From assembly GCA_031409335.1 (NCBI GenBank), contig JANNWY010000228.1, positions 1 to 42,341 of the forward strand: a stretch of DNA of 42,341 bases, given 5' to 3'. Shown in pieces: positions 19,351 to 40,201 of this stretch. Positions within the stretch are counted from its first letter, which is position 1, and every line of letters starts with the position of its first letter. The position numbers were made by a program, and so were the translations under genes. The notes beneath the pieces are model-generated. The model saw only the letters and a program-made list of their open reading frames with translations, did not search any database and had not been told where the DNA came from. This stretch comes from Chthoniobacteraceae bacterium. Lineage in GTDB: Bacteria > Verrucomicrobiota > Verrucomicrobiia > Chthoniobacterales > Chthoniobacteraceae.

Positions 19351-19877
19351 GCCGCCTCCTCCGTAAGTCGCCACTCGATGCACTCGCGAACCGCGGCACA
19401 AGCGCGCGACAGAGCCACCTTCATGGCGCCGGTAGTCCACCCCATCGCCGCTGCGGTCTCTGCCGCCGATAGCTCACGCCGGAAACGCAGTTCCATTGCC
19501 CGTCTCGCCTGCGGCGCGAGTTTTTCCATGCAGACCTGTATGTGCCGCTCGCGCTCTTCATTTTTCGAAAACGTCGGCTCCTCCGCACACAGCTTCTCTA
19601 TCACTTCCGGCGCTAGCATCGTCTCCTGCTTTCGCCCCGCATCGCGGATTGCTGCCAGCACCTTGAATCGCGCGATCGTGAAAACCCATGCGCGAAAATT
19701 TGTTCCCCGCTCGAAATCACCTGCCTTATCCAAGACCGTCAGATAGGTATCATTCACGAGGTCATCGACCGAATGGGCGTCCGCGGTGAGCCCGCGCAAA
19801 TACCCGCGCAGACGCACGGTGTGCTTGATGAACAAGAAATTCACGAGATCCTTCTGTTTTTGATCGTGGGAAGCCAT
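19347..19877 (-). CDS. ECF sigma-70 factor (Rhodopirellula/Verrucomicrobium type)
   Basis: Region 2 (VDDLVNDTY...FERGTNFRAWVFTIARFKV) and region 4 (CMEKLAPQAR...LSAAETA...VALSR). Confidence 0.9.
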   Translation of the reverse strand: MASHDQKQKDLVNFLFIKHTVRLRGYLRGLTADAHSVDDLVNDTYLTVLDKAGDFERGTNFRAWVFTIARFKVLAAIRDAGRKQETMLAPEVIEKLCAEEPTFSKNEERERHIQVCMEKLAPQARRAMELRFRRELSAAETAAAMGWTTGAMKVALSRACAAVRECIEWRLTEEAA

Positions 19878-20077
19878 TGGTCTTTAATGTTGATTCCAAA
19901 ATGCGCCCCTCGGTTAGCAAAGAAAATGCGGTTTGTTGATCGACGCCACCCTCCCGCAGCGAAAGGCAATTTACCGGCTATGGCCCTGCGGGCTTGCCTT
20001 CCCAAGCGATGTCGGTCCGCTCAGGCGTGCTTGCGGCGTCTCCCGCGCACTGCGAACAAATTCATGCGTTCCGCGTG

Positions 20078-20436
20078 CTACGGTGCGGAGGCACTTTCGA
20101 TGACCGCGGGCAGGTTCGTGACGAGATCGGTGGTTTTGTTGGCCGCTACATCCCAGACGATGAGGTAATCCACGCCGCCGTAATCGTGGATGAGGCGGTC
20201 GCGCATTCCGGCCATTTTGCGCCATTCGAGAGTGGGCAACTCGGCGCGAGTGTCTTCCGGCACTTTCTTCGCAGCCTCCCCGATGATTTCGAGACTGCGC
20301 ACAAAGGCGCGTTTGAGCACTCGTCGGCGAGGAAGTCGTCGCGAGTAATTTTCGTCATGTGGGTCCGCAGAAATTCGGTGCAGAAGAATTGCACGTCGGA
20401 TGTGGTGAAGGATTTGACGTAGAGCGGTGGCGCCAT
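20078..20436 (-). pseudogene. hepT: HepT-like (DUF86/HEPN) RNase toxin, frameshifted
   Basis: RSLEIIGEAAKKVP...WRKMAGMRDRLIHDYGGVD (RX4HXY); the N-terminus (TRDDFLADE, ILHHIR) lies in other frames; 1-nt loss near 20320. Confidence 0.8.
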
Positions 20437-20581
20437 GCTTACCCTATGGCCGGAGGCCAATCAAAATCAAAGAGAGACGCTGGCGCGGGGGTGTTGGCAT
20501 GGCGCGACGGAGCGACGCCATCCACCTTCTTCGACGACGGCTGAGATGCGCGAAATTGGGCGATTTTCGCCAGATTCCCGC

Positions 20582-20875
20582 GTTTCCAGAGTAGCTGACA
20601 CGCTCTCCAAGCCGATTTACACGGTGTCCAAGGCGATTGGCGGGATGTCCAAGCCGTCTGTCGCGATGGTGTTGGCGAATTTTGCACTATCCAAGGCGGG
20701 TGGCGCGGTGTCCAAGCCGTCTGTCCGGCTCTCCAAGGCGTCTGACGCGCTCTCCAAGCCTGCTCGCACGCTGTCAAAGGTTTTTTCGCGCTGTCCACGC
20801 CGGTTTTACCTGCTATCCAACGGCACTGTCGGATTGTCCAAGGCGGGCGTCGGGGTGGCCAACGGCCTTTTCATG
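20582..20875. repeat. Degenerate tandem array, 14 units of 21 bp with TCCAAG core
   Basis: Core at 20585, 20606, 20627, 20648, (20669 degenerate), 20690, 20711, 20732, 20753, 20774, 20794, 20816, 20837, 20858. Confidence 0.88.
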
Positions 20876-20940
20876 GGAGTGGATTCCGGATTGCGCCGAT
20901 CCCGCGCTGCCGGTCGCAATCTCACCGCTGAAGTCTGTTC

Positions 20941-21117
20941 CGCGTCGGTATCGCCTCGACGAATCGCGAAGCCGCCGCCGACCACGCAGATGGTGCCGAA
21001 GATAAACCCAATGAGCATGACGATGCCCATCGCTTTGCTTGCGCCTTCGGCGAGACCGCCGGCGGCTTGCGCGAGGATCGGCGGCGCGCGCAGTGAAATG
21101 AGGAGTGATGTATTCAT
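20941..21117 (-). pseudogene. Truncated VirB2/TrbC-like pilin
   Basis: Leader ending ILAQ, then a Gly-rich hydrophobic helix (GIVMLIGFIFGTICVVGGGFAI) and RRGD loop; the expected second TM helix is missing and the ORF runs into the 21-bp array. Confidence 0.5.
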
Positions 21118-21150
21118 GCGTCCGTTTTTAGCGGACGCAGACGCGCGCAA

Positions 21151-21166
21151 GCTCCCGTTCGGGAGC
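21151..21166. promoter_or_regulatory. Palindromic operator GCTCCC-N4-GGGAGC (copy 1)
   Basis: GCTCCCGTTCGGGAGC between the divergent pilin-like and ClpB-like genes. Confidence 0.65.
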
Positions 21167-21200
21167 CAAGTGAATGCACTCCCGAATTACGCTGCGCCGC

Positions 21201-22331
21201 ATGAACGCATCATCGGACACGGATCTTCACGCAAACAAACTTCGCGAGCTTCTGCCCTTTCTGCGCGGTTGCATTCGCGGTCAGGATCACGCGTTGCCTC
21301 GTATCGCATCGCTCCTGCAACGCGGTGAGCTTGGTTTGTCGAAACGCTCGCGCCCGCGCGGCAGCTTTCTCTTTCTCGGGCCGACGGGCGTAGGCAAAAC
21401 GCAAGTCACCATCGCGTTCACCGAATTTCTCATGGGAGCGGATCACCTGTTCCGTTTTGATATGTCGGAGTATCAAACGCAGGACAGCATCGGCGTGCTG
21501 CTTGGCGGCAAGCTCGGCGAGCGTGGCACGCTTGCGCTCGCGCGTGACCGGCATGACTGCGGCACGTTGCTTTGCGACGAAATCGAGAAGGCGCATCCGC
21601 GCGTGCTCGACATCTTTCTGCAAATTCTCGACGCCGCGCGGGTGACGATGGCGAATGGCGAGACGCTGGATTTGAGCGGCTTCTACATCGTCTTCACTTC
21701 GAATATCGCCGCTGCGGAAATGCTGGAACTCCAACATTCCAGTTTCGCCACGATGGAGCGCCACGTCCTCGCCCGCGCGCAACAAACGATGCGCCCGGAA
21801 CTATTCGCGCGCATCAATGAAAAGCTGGTTTTCCAACGCCTCAGCTACGACGTGCAGCTCGAAATCGCGCGGCTCTTGCTCGATGCAGAATTGGAATTTC
21901 TGCGCGCAGCGGGTCACACGTTGAGCGTGGATGAATCCGTGCTGCCGTTCCTCGTGCAAAGTGGCTAACACCCGCGTCTCGGCGCACGTCCGATGCGCGA
22001 TGCGGTGGAAAAATTGATCGGAGACGCGGTGGCCGCGCAGCTTATGGCAGGCGGCACCGCCAGCGGCCGACGGGTGTGATTGAAAGTGGGATCGGCGCGC
22101 GCCGGACGCCAAGTGGCTCCTGCGGCCCCCCGCAGGAATCCAACAACGCGCGCAGCGCCCACTTCCCCGGTGCGCGTCCATGCGAGAGAGGCGCTCCGCG
22201 CGCGCGGGGATTCATGCGGGGGCCGCATGAGCCACAGGCCGCCGCGCGCTGGCGCCACTTTCAATCACACCCGCGGGCGACTCAAATTTGATGAGCAAAG
22301 CCGGGCGCTGCTAATCGCCGCTGGCGCGTGA
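21201..22331 (+). pseudogene. Stand-alone ClpB/ClpA D2-type AAA+ ATPase, disrupted by a nonsense codon and a MITE
   Basis: IRGQDHA, FLGPTGVGKT, RFDMSEYQ, DEIEKAH, FTSN, RPELFARI; TAA at 21966-21968 where G[Y]HPRLGARPMR continues in frame; original C-terminus resumes after 22281. Confidence 0.85.
22072..22272. mobile_element. 201-bp MITE with 18-bp terminal inverted repeats and 9-bp target duplication
   Basis: GGGTGTGATTGAAAGTGG...CCACTTTCAATCACACCC; flanks GCGGCCGAC (22063-22071) and GCGGGCGAC (22273-22281); interior is largely self-complementary. Confidence 0.88.
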
Positions 22332-23204
22332 AGATTTAACTACGGTGCTGAGGACGGCATTGCTCGCAGCATCACTTTCCATCCAAGCGTAAGCCTCGGC
22401 CATCAGCGTTCGTAGAAACATCAAACGGTTCTGCTGCCGCTGTCCTTTCGGAGAATCGAGCGCGGTGAGCCAACGTTGCCATTTGAGGGAATCGGTGCTC
22501 GCGGCGAGTCCCGCTAGCGCGCTCAGTGCCTCCTCGGGAAAGACTTTGCTTTCGCCCAGGACGAGCGCGTGTCCGCGCCACCGCACTCGCGAGACGACGA
22601 GCACGCGGCTGGCTCGTCCGGTGAGGACGGCGCGGAAGGTCGTGAGAAAAATCCGCGCGGTCGGCCCGCGCAGCGCGAACTCGGTTAGCGATTGCCAGCA
22701 CCAGCGCCACGAAAGCTGCCGGCCTTTGCGCCGCGTCTCGCGCAAGTAACGCCCAGGGCGGTCGAACGCTTTCATCGTGCCCTTCGCTTCGCAAAGCAGC
22801 ACGCCGTCGCGGTCGAGTTGGCGTGCGGCAAGATCGAGGCCGGTGCGCGTGTAGGCGAGGTCGTTGCCAAACACCGCTTCCAAGTTCGGCTGCGATTGCA
22901 TCCAGCGGATCGCGCCGAGCACGCCGCCATCCTCGATGGAATGCACCCGCGCCGCGCCGCCTAAAAATTCGACGGGCTTTTCACCCCGCATGTCCGCAAG
23001 CAATCCGCCGAAATCAAAATGGCCCGACGTGCCCTTGAGAAGCCCTCCCCAAGCCTGATCCAGTGTGGATGCTTGAAAAAACAAATGCTCCAAGGGGTTC
23101 AACTTTTCCAATACGCGATACGCGCTGCGCACTTCCTTTTGCAACGGCGCGCGTGCTCCTGCTGGCAACAATTTGAGGAGCTGCAGGAGGTCAATCGCGC
23201 TCAC
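22311..23204 (-). CDS. Hypothetical protein with PD-(D/E)xK nuclease-like motif
   Basis: IED...TGLDLAAR...VLLCEAKG motif spacing typical of restriction-endonuclease folds. Confidence 0.55.
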   Translation of the reverse strand: MSAIDLLQLLKLLPAGARAPLQKEVRSAYRVLEKLNPLEHLFFQASTLDQAWGGLLKGTSGHFDFGGLLADMRGEKPVEFLGGAARVHSIEDGGVLGAIRWMQSQPNLEAVFGNDLAYTRTGLDLAARQLDRDGVLLCEAKGTMKAFDRPGRYLRETRRKGRQLSWRWCWQSLTEFALRGPTARIFLTTFRAVLTGRASRVLVVSRVRWRGHALVLGESKVFPEEALSALAGLAASTDSLKWQRWLTALDSPKGQRQQNRLMFLRTLMAEAYAWMESDAASNAVLSTVVKSSRASGD

Positions 23205-34015: not shown

Positions 34016-35491
34016 TTACCCCGTGAACCAGCTCGAAATCTCGCCGTTCGGCTCAAGCGGGGGTAGCGAGGTTTGCTTGAAGCCGCGTTCCGCATGAACG
34101 AGAACACAGGTGTGCTTCGGCAAGCTGCGCAGGACGTAAGGCTTAATCTTGTGCTCCTCCTGCTCGTTGTAGTTGCTCGTCGTGTGACCGTGCGAAAAGC
34201 CCCATGAGCGTTTCAGGAATTTTTTCTTCCCCAAGAAATCGGCGCTTTCGACAGCCCCTTCCTCGTCCGCAGCTTTGAAGATCATTCGATTGCGGAGATT
34301 GAGCGTGAGGACACGGGCTTTTTCCCGACCGAGCGGAGGAACGAATGACGTGGAAGATTGAGCGGCGGCGACGACGGTGCCCTGCGCTTCGCGGATTACG
34401 TCCACGGAGTTGTAATCGCTCATGCCGTCCTCACTCGCGGTCATAAAACGCTGCGCTTCGTCGGCCCAGAGGATGAGAAGATTGTCGTCCCGGCGTTGCG
34501 CCTTCGATTTGTCGAAACGGCGCAAGACGTGCGTGTAGAAAAGCATTTTGAGAAACGTGTTCACATAACGCCGCTCGGCCTGGAATTTCTGCGGCATAGC
34601 GACGCAGATGATTTTGCCGCGGTCGATTTCGGCGAAGTCGAAAGTATTTTCACGCGGGCAAAATACCTGCGTGATTTCCGGTGAAAGGAAATGCTGGAGG
34701 TAGTTCGCGATGGTTTCCTTCACGCCGCCGATTTGCTCCGGCGGCTGGTTGAGAAAGCGATTCTTGAAATGATCGTAGAGCGCATTACGCCGCTCGGTGG
34801 CATAGCCACCGAGCAGGTCTGACAGCGCCTCGTTCATGTCCTTCTCATCAAGCAGGAGGCTGTAGGCATTCTCCAGCGTCACGTCGGCGCGGATTTCGTA
34901 GAGCGTTTCCAGCGCCTTGGCGATGTGGGTCTGCGCCTGATTCTTGAAGAATCCCTTATCGCCCTGCTGGCCAAGGCTCGATGCCGTATCGACGACGAAT
35001 TTGGCATACGTGCTCGCGGGGATGGTTCGGTCGGAAGTGAGATTGTAGGCGTGCTGCGGCTTCCATCCCGTCGGTGCATTCTCGGGTTTCACTTGCAGCA
35101 AAATCAAATCGTCCTCGCGATGAAAGTGAGCGGCCATTTCCGAAAGCGTTTCCCAATAGAGTCCCTTGTCGTCGATGCAGACACCGCCCCATCCGGGTTC
35201 GTTTTTGAAGACCTGATAGAGCAGCGGAGTAATGCCGGAGCGGGTCTTGCCGGAGCCGGTGTCGCCGGTGATGAGCCAGCCACGGCAAAAGTCTTCGCGC
35301 GTCCACGAAAGGCCGCTGAGTCGCACGATGACTTTGCGCGTCCGTTGTGCGGCGGGAAGCGTCAGCGCGAAGACTGCAAGCAAGCCAAAGGCTGTTGCCA
35401 TTGCAGGGGCGGCAGGAGCATCGAGGATTTGCAGCGAGTAGTATCCGGCTGCCAACGACAATGCGGCGATGATGGTATTGACGAAATTCAT
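34016..35491 (-). CDS. Type IV coupling protein (TraD/VirD4-like)
   Basis: Two N-terminal TM helices, Walker A ITGDTGSGKT, IDDKG, Walker B LWADEAQRF, AAAQS. Confidence 0.88.
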   Translation of the reverse strand: MNFVNTIIAALSLAAGYYSLQILDAPAAPAMATAFGLLAVFALTLPAAQRTRKVIVRLSGLSWTREDFCRGWLITGDTGSGKTRSGITPLLYQVFKNEPGWGGVCIDDKGLYWETLSEMAAHFHREDDLILLQVKPENAPTGWKPQHAYNLTSDRTIPASTYAKFVVDTASSLGQQGDKGFFKNQAQTHIAKALETLYEIRADVTLENAYSLLLDEKDMNEALSDLLGGYATERRNALYDHFKNRFLNQPPEQIGGVKETIANYLQHFLSPEITQVFCPRENTFDFAEIDRGKIICVAMPQKFQAERRYVNTFLKMLFYTHVLRRFDKSKAQRRDDNLLILWADEAQRFMTASEDGMSDYNSVDVIREAQGTVVAAAQSSTSFVPPLGREKARVLTLNLRNRMIFKAADEEGAVESADFLGKKKFLKRSWGFSHGHTTSNYNEQEEHKIKPYVLRSLPKHTCVLVHAERGFKQTSLPPLEPNGEISSWFTG

Positions 35492-35850
35492 GGCGTTAAT
35501 TTTCCAATGGCGATTCCCGCCGCGAGAGCGACCAGAAGCAGGAGAAAGAAAAGCGCGCCGCGCCCGGATCGCATCTGCCGCGCGGTGTCCGGCAGCTTCC
35601 GCAATTCCTGAATCAGCTCCGCCGCTTGTTTCGCGAAGGTCTTCGTTCGCTGGTCGAGCAGCTCGATTGATTCACGGAACTCCTCGAAGGTCGGCGGACG
35701 CGAGCCGGTGGCGGTCGGCTCGGAAGTCCGCAGGTAGATGTGGAAAAGCTCCAGCGAAGCCAGCATCGGATCGCCGTCGCGAATGCCGTATTTCTTCTGC
35801 CATTCGAGAACGGCATTTTGCAGCGTGAGATTGCGCTCGTCGCTGTTCAC
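35488..35850 (-). CDS. TraM/StbC-position membrane-anchored protein
   Basis: GTG start overlapping the upstream TGA; KYGIRDGDPM motif, coiled coil, C-terminal TM helix; overlaps the T4CP start. Confidence 0.7.
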   Translation of the reverse strand: MNSDERNLTLQNAVLEWQKKYGIRDGDPMLASLELFHIYLRTSEPTATGSRPPTFEEFRESIELLDQRTKTFAKQAAELIQELRKLPDTARQMRSGRGALFFLLLLVALAAGIAIGKLTP

Positions 35851-36611
35851 GGCGCAGTCACACCCTCCACCGCAGGCACGGCTTTGCGTTTCGCTTTCCC
35901 GTTGTTCTTCGACTGCTCGCCGGTCGGAAGCAGTAGCTCGCGAGCAAGGTCGATCTGCTCGTAGAATTTCGCCTGCCAGTTCTTCAATCGCTGCCGATCC
36001 ACGAGACTGAAATCGCTCTGCGCAATGGCGGCGGTCATCGACAGATTCGTCTCGTTCAATCCGGTGACGAGCCAATCGTAGAGCTTGGGCATGACGATTT
36101 CCTGACCGCCGAGTTCGCCCAGCACACGGCTCCGCGTCTGGCTTTGATCGAAAATTTTGAACTGCTCGCTGTGCGCTTGATTGCGCACGATCACATACCG
36201 GCACTTCGGGCCGAGCGCGTCGGCGATGATCTTCACCTGCTCCACACTATCCGCCTCGTGATTGACGGGTGAAATGATGGTCAGCGTCGCGCCGAGCATT
36301 TCCAGAATCTCGAAAACCCGCACCTCGGCGAAGTAATCGAGAAAGATGTCGGTGGAAGCTGCGCGGCAATCGACGACGACTAGGCCACTGGTTTCGAGAC
36401 TGGAAATCAACACGTCGATTTCCTGCACCTGCTCGATATTGATGAACTCGGCTTCGCGGTGAAATCGCTTGAGCGTGGAGTTCTCGTTATCGGTGTCGAT
36501 GGCGCGATGCCCGACCTGCTGGTCTTTGAGGTATTGGACAAAGTTGGTTGCGAAGAAGCTCTTCCCGACGCCGCCTTTGCCGTTGATGATGATGTCGATG
36601 TGTTTGGTCAT
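35847..36611 (-). CDS. ParA/MinD-like ATPase (TraL/StbB/MobD-like)
   Basis: Deviant Walker A GKGGVGKS, IDTD, VVDC; position next to oriT. Confidence 0.82.
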   Translation of the reverse strand: MTKHIDIIINGKGGVGKSFFATNFVQYLKDQQVGHRAIDTDNENSTLKRFHREAEFINIEQVQEIDVLISSLETSGLVVVDCRAASTDIFLDYFAEVRVFEILEMLGATLTIISPVNHEADSVEQVKIIADALGPKCRYVIVRNQAHSEQFKIFDQSQTRSRVLGELGGQEIVMPKLYDWLVTGLNETNLSMTAAIAQSDFSLVDRQRLKNWQAKFYEQIDLARELLLPTGEQSKNNGKAKRKAVPAVEGVTAP

Positions 36612-36618
36612 AGAAGGG

Positions 36619-36999
36619 TCAGACGTTGCGCGGATCGGCGATGCGCGGGCCGCGTCCGCGTGAACTGGCGGGCGTTTCGGACGCGATGCCATGTTCGTGT
36701 CGCCGGTTCAGCAACTCGGCTATTGGCGCTGAGGGCTTTGGTGTGGCGCTACGGGTGTCACCTGCTGCCGCTGGCGCGGCCCATTCACGACAGAAACGAG
36801 CGATGGTGTTGTGGGAAACGGTGACGCCGAGTTGCTTGAGCAAATCGGCAATCGTCCTGGATGACGCGCCCTTTTCCCGAAGCCGGACGATGCCGATTGT
36901 GAAAGGAAGTAACGAGTGGAAGCGTCGTCCCGCCGACGCCTCGAACGATTGCACCTTGGCATCGAAAAGCTGAATAAGCTGGTCGCGCTCACTGCTCAT
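36619..36999 (-). CDS. HTH relaxosome accessory protein (TraK/StbA-like)
   Basis: LREKGASSRTIADLL...GVTVSHNTIARF helix-turn-helix; first gene divergent from the relaxase. Confidence 0.65.
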   Translation of the reverse strand: MSSERDQLIQLFDAKVQSFEASAGRRFHSLLPFTIGIVRLREKGASSRTIADLLKQLGVTVSHNTIARFCREWAAPAAAGDTRSATPKPSAPIAELLNRRHEHGIASETPASSRGRGPRIADPRNV

Positions 37000-37387
37000 G
37001 TGACAGCCCTGCAACGATGACGGATACGGACTTGCATCACGCCATGCGCCAATGCTGCGACATGGCTGAACCACCCGTGAGACAAAGCGGTTACAACGCT
37101 GCATCCCGCGACGCGCACTTTGGAGACATTTGGCGAGACGGCATCGTTACGGGTCGTGACGGCACAGTTACAGCGCGTGAGTCGCCGCCGATACGCCGCT
37201 GCTTGATGCCGGATAGTTGCGTGCGACATGCCTGTTACGAAACGACCTAGCGCCCTGCTAGGGGTAGGGCGTCCTCTCTTTCAAAGTTAGCTTTCATGCC
37301 ATCCATGAAAGCGCACCCAAATGATAACAAGCTCCCAAACGGGAGCCTCTTTCAAAATTGTTTGGCTACTAACTGCGGGCCAGTCCC
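37000..37387. other. Candidate oriT region
   Basis: Intergenic between the divergent accessory operon and relaxase; short GTTAC/GTGAC/GCGAC repeats; hairpin CGCCCTGC-taggg-GTAGGGCG at 37251-37271. Confidence 0.6.
37331..37346. promoter_or_regulatory. Palindromic operator GCTCCC-N4-GGGAGC (copy 3)
   Basis: GCTCCCAAACGGGAGC about 40 bp upstream of the relaxase start. Confidence 0.65.
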
Positions 37388-40201
37388 GTGCTTTCGCCGA
37401 AAACTCAATACAACCTCAAGAATGCCAAAGAGTATTTCGAGGAACATCTCTGCGTGGGTGACTACTACAGCGAAGGCGAGCGAATAGCGGGGCAGTGGAT
37501 CGGAAATGGCGCGGCTCTCCTCGGGCTCGGTGAACGGGTGAAGCGCGATGAGTTTATTCGCCTCTGTGAAAGTCTTCATCCGCAGACCGGTAAATTCCTG
37601 ACGCAACGACGGAAGACGATCCGCCGTGAATTGGATGAGGATGGAGACGAGCGAGAGATTGCGAATCGGCGCGTCTTTTACGACTTCACTTTTTCACCAC
37701 CGAAAGACGTTTCCATCCTCGCGCTTGTTGGAGCGGATCAGCGCATCACGACGGCACACGACCGGGCGGTGAAATGTGCGGTCGCCGAGTTGGAGCAGTT
37801 TGCCGCAACCCGAATCAGAAATGCGGGCGCGTATGCAGACCGATGCACGGCGAATGTAGTCGGCGCGATTTTTCGGCATGAAACTTCACGCGCCCTCGAC
37901 CCGCATCTGCACAGCCATTGCATCCTTTTCAATGCTACGCACGACGCCACGGAGAATCGTTGGAAGGCGTTGCAAAATTACGAAATGCTCAGGGCGCAAA
38001 AATACGTTGAGAACGTCTATTACCACGAGCTGGCCCGTGAACTCGGGAGGCTTGGCTACGGAATCGAGAATCAGGCGCGCGGCGATTTCATTATCCGCGG
38101 AGTTTCACCGGAACTCCGCGAGAGATTTTCCAAACGACATTTGGAAATCGACGAGAAGACGCGCGCACTGCTTGCGCGAGAACCGCACAAATCCACCGGC
38201 AACGTCGCGGAAATTCGCGAGCACATCGCGCACAATGAACGCTCGCGGAAAATCCGGGACATCGGCGCAGCGCGACTAAAGGAGCTTTGGAATGGTCAAT
38301 TAGCGGCAGGCGAGGGGCGGGCGCTTCAACGCATCGTTGCGACGGCACAAGGAACGCCGCACCCGCTCCAGCAAATGAGTGCCAACGAATCGTTGCAATG
38401 GGCGGAGGCACATTTGTTCGACCGAAAATCAGTCGTTCGTGAATACGAACTTTGGCGGCACGCGTTGGAGCATGGGCGCGGCTACGAACTGGATGTGTCG
38501 GAATTGAAGGAGGCCAGCGCGCGGCGCGATTACATCCGGGATGGCAACGAATTCCGCAAGGTGACGAGCCGCGAAATGCTGGCGCGCGAATGGGATGTTT
38601 TGCAGAGAGTGAAAGACGGGATTGGAAAACACGCGCCATTTGATTCCGGGCAGGGCATCCGAAATCCGGCGCTCGATTCCGAACAACGCGAAGCGGTGGA
38701 GAGGATTCTAAGCTCGCGCGATTTCGTGACGTTGTTTCGTGGTGGTGCAGGGACGGGCAAGAGTTTCGCGCTCCGTGAAGTGTTGCGTGGACTGCGCGAC
38801 TCCGGCCACTCGGTGCAGGTCATCGCGCCGCAGCGGCAGCAGGTGATTGATCTGCAACGTGACGGGTTCGAGCACGCTCAAACGGTGAGCGAATTTTTGA
38901 CGAGGGCGGATATGCAGTCGGGCACCGTGGTGATTCTCGATGAAGCCGGGCAGCTCGGAGCGAAGCAAATGCAGGCGCTTTTGCGGTTCATCGAAGAAAG
39001 TGGCGGACGGCTGATTGCCTCGGGCGACACGCGGCAGCATGGAGCCGTCGAGGCATCGGATGCGCTGCGAGCCATCGAAAAATACTCCGGGTTGCACGCG
39101 GCAGAATTGCACGAAATCCGGCGGCAAGACCCGCGTCGCGCGGAGACGCCGGGCGAGCGTGAGTTTATCGAGGCATACCGACGTGCGGTGAAGGACGCGG
39201 CGACGGGGGACATCGGCAGCGCCTTCGACCGCCTAAGCAAGCAAGGTGCAGTCGTGGAATGCACGCTGGCGAATCAGCAAGAAAAGCTCGCGGAGCATTA
39301 CCTCGATCTCATCAAGCGCGGACAATCGACAGTGGTTGTGTCGCAAACGTGGTCGGAAATCCACCGGGTCAATGAAGCCGTGCGGCAACGGCTGAAAGCA
39401 CATGGCTTCATTGGTTCGGATGAGCACGCCATCGTCGTGCTCGAACGCACCGACCTGACGGACGCGCAGAAGCGCGACAAGCGATTTCACGGCGTGGACA
39501 CGGTGCTCGTTTTCAACAGGAATTGCGGACGATTCCGCAAAGGCGATTCCGCCCGGCTCGTCGCGATTTCCGAACAGGGTTTGATCGTCGAGACAGCGGA
39601 GCGGGTGGGCACGATTCCGCTGCGCCACGTCGGTCACGTCACCGTTTGCCGTGAGCGGAAAATGGCGTTCGCATCTGGCGACCGGCTGCAACTGAAAGCC
39701 AACGCGCAGACGCGCGACGGTCGCCGCATTGCCAATGGCGAACTGGTCACGGTCGAGCGTGTCGAGGCCGATGGCCGCGTCGTGCTAAACGACGGGCGAA
39801 CGCTCGAAAACGACTACCGGCAATTCGTGCGTGGCTACGCCGTCACTTCCTACGCCTCGCAAGGCAAGACGGTGGATTACGTTCTCTTTTCCGACTCCAT
39901 GGTGAAAGCCGCGACCAATCGACAGCAATGGTATGTCACTATTTCACGCGGTCGAAAGGGCATCCGAATTTTCACGAGCGATGCGCGCCAACTGCGGGAA
40001 AATGCCGCGCGGTCGGGTGATCGCGAACTGGCGATGGACCTCCAACCGCAAGTGGTTGAGCCGCGTCCGCTGAATCGCGGACGCTTGCAGCGCGGCATTT
40101 CGCGTGGCCGTCAGCTCGCCGTGGATTTGTGGTGGCGGTTTAAGACGTTGACCCGGCGGCGAGTCGCACAAATCGCAACTCGCGAGGAAGTGTCGCTATG
40201 A
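37388..40201 (+). CDS. mobF: MobF family relaxase-helicase (TrwC/TraI-like)
   Basis: YF...GDYY, DFTFSPPKDVS, HETSRALDPHLHSH (HUH); RecD-like helicase GGAGTGKS, LDEAG, GDTRQH, YAVTSYASQGKTVD, YVTISRGR. Confidence 0.95.
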   Translation: MLSPKTQYNLKNAKEYFEEHLCVGDYYSEGERIAGQWIGNGAALLGLGERVKRDEFIRLCESLHPQTGKFLTQRRKTIRRELDEDGDEREIANRRVFYDFTFSPPKDVSILALVGADQRITTAHDRAVKCAVAELEQFAATRIRNAGAYADRCTANVVGAIFRHETSRALDPHLHSHCILFNATHDATENRWKALQNYEMLRAQKYVENVYYHELARELGRLGYGIENQARGDFIIRGVSPELRERFSKRHLEIDEKTRALLAREPHKSTGNVAEIREHIAHNERSRKIRDIGAARLKELWNGQLAAGEGRALQRIVATAQGTPHPLQQMSANESLQWAEAHLFDRKSVVREYELWRHALEHGRGYELDVSELKEASARRDYIRDGNEFRKVTSREMLAREWDVLQRVKDGIGKHAPFDSGQGIRNPALDSEQREAVERILSSRDFVTLFRGGAGTGKSFALREVLRGLRDSGHSVQVIAPQRQQVIDLQRDGFEHAQTVSEFLTRADMQSGTVVILDEAGQLGAKQMQALLRFIEESGGRLIASGDTRQHGAVEASDALRAIEKYSGLHAAELHEIRRQDPRRAETPGEREFIEAYRRAVKDAATGDIGSAFDRLSKQGAVVECTLANQQEKLAEHYLDLIKRGQSTVVVSQTWSEIHRVNEAVRQRLKAHGFIGSDEHAIVVLERTDLTDAQKRDKRFHGVDTVLVFNRNCGRFRKGDSARLVAISEQGLIVETAERVGTIPLRHVGHVTVCRERKMAFASGDRLQLKANAQTRDGRRIANGELVTVERVEADGRVVLNDGRTLENDYRQFVRGYAVTSYASQGKTVDYVLFSDSMVKAATNRQQWYVTISRGRKGIRIFTSDARQLRENAARSGDRELAMDLQPQVVEPRPLNRGRLQRGISRGRQLAVDLWWRFKTLTRRRVAQIATREEVSL

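Follow-up and report, generated by a model that had tools for sequence, protein, structure and literature searches.

We analysed a stretch of 42,341 nucleotides (the window), which is the whole of contig C228 (JANNWY010000228.1) in the genome of a Chthoniobacteraceae bacterium (GCA_031409335.1; 7.9 Mb, 326 contigs), and describe here a strictly phased array of 13 head-to-tail 21-bp units on the + strand at 20603-20875. The array is non-coding, its most informative positions are under selection, and related arrays occur in other sediment metagenomes. To judge from its sequence, it may be a DNA array on which a protein docks cooperatively along one face of the helix, resembling iterons or centromeres in its form; we favour this reading tentatively, at somewhat less than an even chance.

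Anatomy, constraint and relatives of the array

The units are built around an 11-bp core, T.TCCAAGSCG, the consensus of the whole unit being CTGTCCAAGGCG-NTT-GTC-GCG, and 12 of the 13 units stand in helical phase across 252 bp. The motif TCCAAGSCG occurs 8 times in the 42-kb window, always on the + strand, and 7 of these occurrences fall inside the array, spaced by exact multiples of 21 bp. Shuffling the window by dinucleotides gives 1.4 occurrences by chance and 8 or more in none of 100 shuffles, while the genome-wide frequency of the motif predicts 0.004 occurrences in 252 bp. The array is far beyond chance and the observation of strict phasing is real. An earlier note, made by a model from the letters alone, had described 14 units in strict 21-bp phase, no two of them identical. 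The phase and the individuality of the units were borne out, every unit differing from every other (Tandem Repeats Finder, TRF, gives 61% matches within the window array); the count becomes 13, since 20582-20602 is coreless and belongs to a conserved leader.

The element as a whole extends over about 20545-20905 (~330 bp) and consists of leader, array and tail. The leader (20545..20602, + strand) contains a small imperfect palindrome, GGCGA-TTT-TCGCC, and the box CCAGAGTAGCTGRCACG; it is homologous from 20562 on to a second copy of the element on contig C259, and the homology reaches to about 20545 through a loose contig end from metagenome run X4 and the reverse-frame peptide P0027, aligned by eye. 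Units 1-3 (20603..20665, +) are 21 bp each and carry the exact TCCAAGSCG core. Unit 4 (20666..20686, +), which we call silent, has no core and keeps its 21-bp length and some of its sequence in all homologues seen, in agreement with the degenerate but in-phase unit of the earlier note; its peptides across the homologues read IVLESFA, IVLVKFA, LAVAIFA, IVVANFA and KSPTKSR. Units 5-9 (20687..20790, +) close with a unit 9 of 20 bp (20771-20790), which in comparison with C259 has lost 1 nt from a run of T; the 22 bp of unit 10 bring the row back in phase. This is the compensated -1/+1 slip that had been noticed before. The 22-bp unit 10 is common to the window, C259 and four peptide homologues. 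Units 10-13 (20791..20875, +) have the weaker cores TCCACG, TCCAAC, TCCAAG and GCCAAC. The tail (20876..20905, +), the limit of which was set by eye and is approximate, shows fading similarity to C259 and to the homologue P0004 (ATTCCGGA / TATCCGGA).

The second copy lies at C259:1359-1652 and aligns unit for unit with the array in the window; 222 of 281 positions are identical (79%), with one gap, and the flanks are unrelated. A phased matrix scan of all 326 contigs returned only these two arrays, with scores of 119 and 110 (next best 26), and in a tblastx comparison of C259 with the window the array was the sole match, no gene being common to both neighbourhoods. The position matrix was derived from 23 units of the two copies, both silent fourth units excluded; its information is highest at positions 2, 4-8 and 15, with minor peaks at 11, 18 and 21. 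Between the paralogues, nine core positions hold 9 differences in 80 comparisons, against 29 in 100 elsewhere (Fisher p 0.005). In contigs of runs X4 and X11, outside unit 4, the 7 high-information positions account for 3 of the 24 listed differences, against an expected 8 (p 0.02); differences were assigned to contigs by their depth sums, and the list lacks 8 of the 31 found in X4. The high-information positions (2, 4-8, 15) evolve slower than the rest, and the element is selected.

The array is a member of a small family in other sediment metagenomes. Run X4, from a separate study, holds at least 5 distinct variants, among them a 397-nt contig with 31 differences across 20575-20781, and short forms in which unit 2 or 3 is joined straight to tail-type units (at loose ends of contigs); the number of units, which the earlier note had proposed to compare between strains, thus varies. 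A 151-nt contig of run X11, from a third study, is ~90% alike to the array. Searching protein collections with the translated array led to P0001, and a profile search with an E limit of 0.001 returned 26 proteins. Of the 25 retrieved, 11 are spurious open reading frames (ORFs) of 66-224 aa that span homologous arrays and stop at the borders of the element, and the other 14 are repeat proteins without relation to it. In P0027 an ORF in a reverse frame crosses a 12-unit array, all 12 units of which stand in one frame. Members that reach the relevant part share a layout of 2-3 units, the silent unit and then 5-8 units. Literature searches on such repeats returned no description of this element, and the family is apparently undescribed.

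The nucleotide-profile search that the earlier note had suggested yielded the C259 copy within the genome. When 401 genomes of the order were scanned with a pattern of three units, 3 mismatches being allowed, no further such array came to light. A two-unit pattern gave isolated matches only in 151 genomes of the bacterial family, and BLAST of the array in 60 relatives gave short, weak matches only. A scan of genome contigs reported at least 119 loci, of which the listed chains of at least 5 units were all unrelated 7- or 21-bp tandem repeats with units largely alike; a scan of metagenome contigs gave 7 loci, all of them chance two-unit matches, a scan of viral contigs reported at least 121 loci, and plasmid and phage collections gave no match to the array. 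The locus G003:C224:7-36 was rejected as a chance two-unit match.

Several other short-period repeats were recorded alongside. Homogeneous 21-bp arrays with similar cores are present in relatives: L174 (G025:C13, ~108,000-108,400) consists of TCGTCCAAGTCGGTCGTYCAC repeated 22 times, and L175 and L193, at two contig ends of G157, share the 21-bp repeat TCCTCCGAGGCGGACGGAGTT; the likeness of these cores may be selection bias, the search pattern having demanded the core. Among the genome-contig matches listed, L073 (Luteolibacter) shows a 42-bp alternation. P0026, a transporter-like membrane protein of 608 aa, has six consecutive LSKPSVA heptads in a loop; LSKPSVA is the peptide reading of array units 3 and 6, so that a near-identical 21-nt unit seems to be present elsewhere as a young in-frame repeat. 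In the genome itself (G000), TRF gives 226 period-7 rows and 115 period-21 rows; many of the former are (GAACATC)n with 5-8 copies, TTTCCGC is repeated 29 times on C143, and examples lie at C52:16952-17010, C307:10369-10427 and C143:2502-2701. A 61-bp-period array at G000:C251:207-1088, with the repeat GTTTTCCCCACCCGCGTGGGGATGGTCCG, resembles a CRISPR array and is unrelated to the 21-bp array.

Reading frames and explanations of the array

The earlier note had offered a diversifying heptad cassette as its opening interpretation. A coding cassette would encode Phi-S-K-(P/A)-x-x-x heptads under diversifying selection (the LSKP frame) or, in the +1 frame, an Arg/Cys/Pro-rich [C/S]-P-x-R-Phi-x-x peptide. 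In its favour, inside the core the codons of the LSKP frame are of the preferred GC-ending kind and the information peaks at first and second codon positions, and gene callers chose this frame in 11 metagenomic homologues. The differences between the window and C259 are nevertheless spread over the three codon positions as 19, 15 and 17 (chi-square p 0.79), and the frame-by-frame comparison of non-synonymous with synonymous change that had been proposed as a check gives a pN/pS of 1.34 in the LSKP frame, which speaks against coding in this frame. At the leader of C259 it is interrupted by a TGA, and its first start comes no earlier than unit 3. The copies have no start or stop in common, and the ORFs in the databases start and end differently in every homologue. 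In C259, P0001, P0002, P0003 and P0016 the 22-bp unit is uncompensated, and the later cores read V-Q-G, not S-K, with the nucleotide core kept; the constraint thus acts on nucleotides, not on residues. From unit 9-10 on, the window and C259 are in different frames and the DNA is still alignable. The third bases of the LSKP frame that the earlier note had reported as fixed are indeed so in the position matrix, as T15, C18 and G21, whatever the residue encoded, and the T runs contrary to the bias of the genome at third codon positions (GC3). Across 91 heptads from 13 members, residues needing NNR at positions 5 and 6 were found in 2 and 3 cases and residues needing NNY at position 7 in 1 case, the p values for fixed third bases ranging from 2e-7 to 1.5e-5.

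Searches for a protein family point the same way: no homologue beyond the arrays was found in a 5.8-billion-cluster protein set or in a 1.84-billion-representative set, tblastn detected no paralogue of the repeat peptide in the genome, and Pfam had no match for the array frames. The + frame is open, as had been stated; at least one minus frame (ORF 20439..20798) is also open across units 1-9, so the open + frame is not distinctive. We also considered and rejected a pair of variable and template repeats (VR/TR) of a diversity-generating retroelement (DGR). A stands at 14 of the 58 differing sites in the window and at 12 of 58 in C259, and the RVT_1 genes of the genome lie on C32 and C149 only; with differences that are not adenine-specific and no reverse transcriptase nearby, the two arrays are not such a pair. 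No reading frame behaves like a gene and the element is non-coding; a coding cassette of either form is very unlikely. Constraint at the nucleotide level can thus leave behind a frame that is open and well used in its codons, and gene callers have put at least 12 spurious 'proteins' from this element into public databases.

A phased protein-binding array with a period of two helical turns had been named as another possibility, and of the readings proposed it fits best. The array would line up docking sites along one helix face for the cooperative binding of a sequence-specific protein, and the reader of the motif is probably a DNA-binding and not an RNA-binding protein. Each unit would offer a main contact at positions 2-8 and a second contact at T15, one turn on; with 21 bp making two turns, successive units would be aligned on the same face, and the silent unit 4 would separate a first block of 3 units from a second of about 9. 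The exact two-turn period and the silent unit kept at 21 bp in all lineages speak for DNA, and the two peaks of information (2-8 and T15), about one turn apart, would place all contacts on one face. In plasmid iterons, according to PMC4980987, the cooperativity of Rep binding is lost when the sites are shifted by half a turn, and each repeat presents two short sub-motifs to the winged-helix domains of pi and RepE. The binder would be encoded elsewhere because no neighbour is common to the copies, and the array might either act in trans, by titrating the binder or giving it a platform, or act in cis on the local mobile-element and toxin-antitoxin (TA) genes.

Several points weigh against a docking array. 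No candidate binder was found. The DNA comparison rests on two copies, the other homologues being peptides or lists of differences only. C259 and four more homologues tolerate a slip of 1 nt, and the X4 short forms exist, so that neither full length nor strict phase is obligatory. No neighbour is common to the three contexts, which are hepT in the window, the antitoxin, nucleotidyltransferase-like and queA genes at C259, and others at P0027; the lack of a consistent gene association, which the earlier note had named as evidence that would tell against its view, is in part what we see. The variable half of the unit is fixed at every third base (NNY NNY NNR), which recognition of duplex DNA does not predict, and this pattern is explained by neither the DNA nor the RNA model. 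In the window and at C259 alike, the array's reverse complement lies just 3' of a minus-strand gene, which would also suit a minus-strand RNA. Lastly, the +1 frame ('CPSRLSR') alone has a low pN/pS, 0.35, with 18.8 synonymous and 17.2 non-synonymous changes, and its peptides are 73% identical between the window and C259, compared with ~60% in the other frames. The ratio is low because the freest bases (1, 10, 13, 19) are the third positions of this frame. The same frame meets a TAG within the conserved box of the leader, in the window as in C259, is interrupted at the slips, and keeps invariant third bases in the rare codons TGT, CCA, AGG and CGA; we take its signal as a by-product of the site pattern.

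Two further explanations have to be set beside the docking array. The array could be a dispersed minisatellite, selfish or neutral, that is, a 21-bp repeat which arose by slippage, aged, and was copied and resized by recombination, its core serving spreading or resizing and not the host. The copy number of units does vary among the X4 variants, the gene association is inconsistent, and both copies lie in variable DNA rich in mobile elements (TA genes, an insertion like repetitive extragenic palindromes or miniature inverted-repeat transposable elements, REP/MITE, a multi-copy repeat on C259, and conjugation genes). The abundance of 7- and 21-bp repeats in the genome (the 226 and 115 TRF rows), the homogeneous arrays with similar cores in relatives (22 units in G025:C13) and the LSKPSVA heptad repeated six times in a row inside the transporter P0026 would fit as well. 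However, the units are old and all different, their order is kept together with the silent unit, the leader and the tail both between the paralogues and across the family, and the high-information positions are constrained. Inspection by eye showed neither terminal inverted repeats nor target duplications. With two copies only in 7.9 Mb and none in the 401 genomes searched with the three-unit pattern, this is not an expanding repeat. We regard a minisatellite as a rather unlikely explanation.

The earlier note had also thought of a small-RNA array. The element would then be a repeat RNA, likeliest from the minus strand (unit CGSCUUGGASAS), and would offer many sites to an RNA-binding protein, as a decoy or sponge does. 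The run of minus-strand genes in the window includes the array and hepT; a minimal HepT toxin is normally paired with MNT, and this hepT is without its usual MNT gene. Contigs of runs X4, X7 (from another study) and X2 join the 5' flank of hepT to the leader without the repeat insertion that separates them in the window, the C259 array likewise lies 3' of a minus-strand gene, queA, and a leader-box difference, A in the window and G in C259, would make a U-G and a C-G pair, respectively, only in a minus-strand hairpin (a single event, judged by eye). A precedent is AbiF, for which HEPN toxins with an upstream repeat RNA are described (bioRxiv 10.1101/2025.04.15.648962). On the other hand, the array folds no better than shuffles on either strand (z +1.48 and +0.66), the folds of the leader are not significant (z -1.84 to +0.63), Rfam gave no match at gathering scores (a chance SNORD17 match had E 1.5), and simple promoter and terminator scans returned nothing common to the copies. 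The 16 runs listed for the stretch include no RNA run, which favours neither side. The CsrA site is ANGGA, and UUGGA is a poor match to it, though the genome has csrA. Moreover, hepT is absent downstream at C259 and P0027, the units are unlike type III repeats in length and diversity (given below), and a silent unit of strictly 21 nt has no obvious meaning for a sponge. A repeat RNA is an unlikely reading in our estimate, and its narrower form, in which the minus-strand array would take the place of MNT and counter the adjacent HepT RNase in the manner of type III decoys or antitoxins and the copies without hepT would be orphans, is most improbable; if true, it would be a type III-like TA system with a new family of toxin and with non-identical repeats of 21 nt. 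Readings other than the four named here are left with little room.

If a protein does line up on the array, the docking reading would imply a new DNA-recognition system in poorly studied sediment bacteria and, if true, a stand-alone iteron-like platform without a partner gene beside it. The fixed 11-bp core offers a direct handle on the binder, and the silent unit and the slips allow the dependence on phase to be tested.

Genomic surroundings

To the left of the array lies hepT, the gene of a HEPN RNase toxin (20078..20436, - strand; PF01934, E 2.8e-19 on the C-terminal ORF), which carries a frameshift near 20320; its N-terminal part was read from ORF 20146..20460, and no MNT gene was found upstream. 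A related X4 contig has one extra T behind 20320, the base that is missing from the hepT of the window. The 140 bp between hepT and the leader (20423-20562) are a dispersed repeat of REP/MITE-like kind; BLAST finds 45 matches to it in the genome, many of them close together as inverted pairs, and metagenome depth peaks there (up to about 400). Contigs of X2, X4 and X7 are without this repeat and join the 5' flank of hepT to the array leader (20422->20538, 20422->20563). Further to the left are an extracytoplasmic function (ECF) sigma and anti-sigma pair, a surface protein of 1809 aa and sulfatases; the small membrane-protein gene described next, the reverse complement of the array, hepT, ECF sigma and anti-sigma are co-oriented on the minus strand of the window. 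A search of 4 incomplete genomes from the same genus did not recover the anti-sigma gene.

The small membrane-protein ORF (20806..21150, -) has no Pfam match, and its open frame enters the last three array units. It has a signal-like start, the motif AQAAGGL and one hydrophobic helix, and only its part at 20945-21138 is covered by many metagenome contigs; this coverage argues for a real, widespread small gene, and its frame runs into the array by chance.

On the right side, 21174-42341 is a conjugative element that continues into G000:C294 (141-bp end overlap). It includes the gene of a stand-alone ClpB-like AAA_2 protein (21174-21968, +), which matches the PADLOC defence candidates PDC-M37B and DolB, and next to it an ORF of 297 aa (22311-23204, -) that has a D...EAK motif and looks PD-(D/E)xK nuclease-like by eye; these two genes may form a defence gene pair. 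Among the other genes are those for a coupling protein (34016-35491), a ParA-like protein (35847-36692; 15 kb from the array, with other repeats beside it), a TrwC relaxase (37388-40201), DUF932, DUF7673 and zeta-toxin-like proteins and a NACHT-like protein of 1433 aa. The gap between the ParA-like and relaxase genes holds a 21-bp direct repeat in 2.3 copies (GCGTGACGGCACAGTTACAGC, 37133-37180) and is the more likely site of the conjugative element's own oriT or centromere. Attachment repeats of an integrative and conjugative element (ICE) were looked for and rejected, no direct repeat of more than 19 bp linking 19801-21500 with C294.

The C259 array stands between an Rv0078B-like antitoxin gene with a nucleotidyltransferase-like gene and the 3' end of queA, and a multi-copy repeat lies at the start of this contig. 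The DNA downstream of queA differs in each of 5 relatives (3 of them of the same genus), so that no queA-linked synteny was found. No HepT is encoded downstream of the P0027 array.

Comparison with known systems

CRISPR arrays consist of identical repeats of 24-48 bp and unique spacers of similar size; a core of 11 bp with a remainder of 10 bp is too short for this, and none of the window ORFs that were scanned matched a cas family, which confirms the exclusion of CRISPR in the earlier note. Sponges of the CsrB/RsmZ type have their own promoter and terminator and carry numerous GGA motifs, each as part of A(N)GGA in the loop of a hairpin. Here the minus strand has one GGA per unit in a UUGGA context, with neither hairpins nor a terminator, and such a sponge was rejected although csrA is present. 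Variable number tandem repeats (VNTRs) or minisatellites are alike in being non-coding, in-phase arrays of short period whose unit number varies between strains, as it does in the X4 contigs. In contrast to them, the units here are ancient and individually recognisable between the paralogues, leader, tail and silent unit are kept, and there are two copies per genome. A young VNTR without position-specific constraint was rejected on the TRF matches of 61% and the core-versus-rest p of 0.005.

Type III TA systems (ToxI, CptI, TenpI) and AbiF have a repeat array directly upstream of an RNase toxin gene and on the same strand. If the minus strand is read, the array would stand in this way to hepT in the window and in the X2, X4 and X7 contigs, and it does not do so at C259 or P0027, which makes a mixed picture. 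Their repeats are 34-50 nt long, near-identical and folding (bioRxiv 10.1101/2025.04.15.648962), while those of our array are 21 nt, all different and without a predicted fold (z +0.66); by length, identity and fold the array is not a type III antitoxin. There is no terminator between the array and hepT, the toxin here is a minimal HepT, and two of the three contexts are without a toxin.

Plasmid centromeres such as R1 parC (2 x 5 iterons) and F sopC (12 x 43 bp) share with the array many phased direct repeats that assemble one large protein complex. In R1 parC, as PMC2241845 and PMC3177203 describe it, two blocks of repeats are separated by an unbound gap; the array has blocks of 3 and about 9 units with the silent unit between them. 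No parA/parM or centromere-binding gene was found beside either copy, the nearest ParA-like gene being that at 35847-36692; at C259 the check consisted of reading the ORFs, of which only the two next to the array were scanned with Pfam.

In form the array is closest to iteron arrays and to the centromeres just described, while it is without the genes and sites that define either; its differences from iteron origins concern number, divergence and company. The array has 13 units, known origins 2-7, and its units are far more diverged than the iterons of one origin. No Rep family was found by Pfam among the larger ORFs within about 3 kb of either copy, several ORFs there being without a family, so that a novel Rep could be among them; there is no AT-rich unwinding element, GC being 0.60-0.61 in 20001-22000 and the flanks without an AT-rich stretch, and no DnaA boxes stand beside the array. 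A site of oriC or DnaA titration was rejected, dnaA and the only canonical boxes lying together on C297 and the core of the array differing from them, and so was the turn of GC skew in the window as a sign of an origin, as it follows gene orientation. One replicon can hold more than one iteron cluster, as P1 does with incA and incC. Iterons of RK2, P1, F, R6K and pPS10 are direct repeats of 17-22 bp in the same orientation, about two turns apart, with a conserved part and a variable spacer. The array agrees with the definition of iterons as 17-22 bp direct repeats in helical phase, as given in PMC4980987. Binding to iterons is cooperative and depends on phase, and the two sub-motifs contacted in each repeat (PMC4980987) resemble the main core and T15 of the units here.

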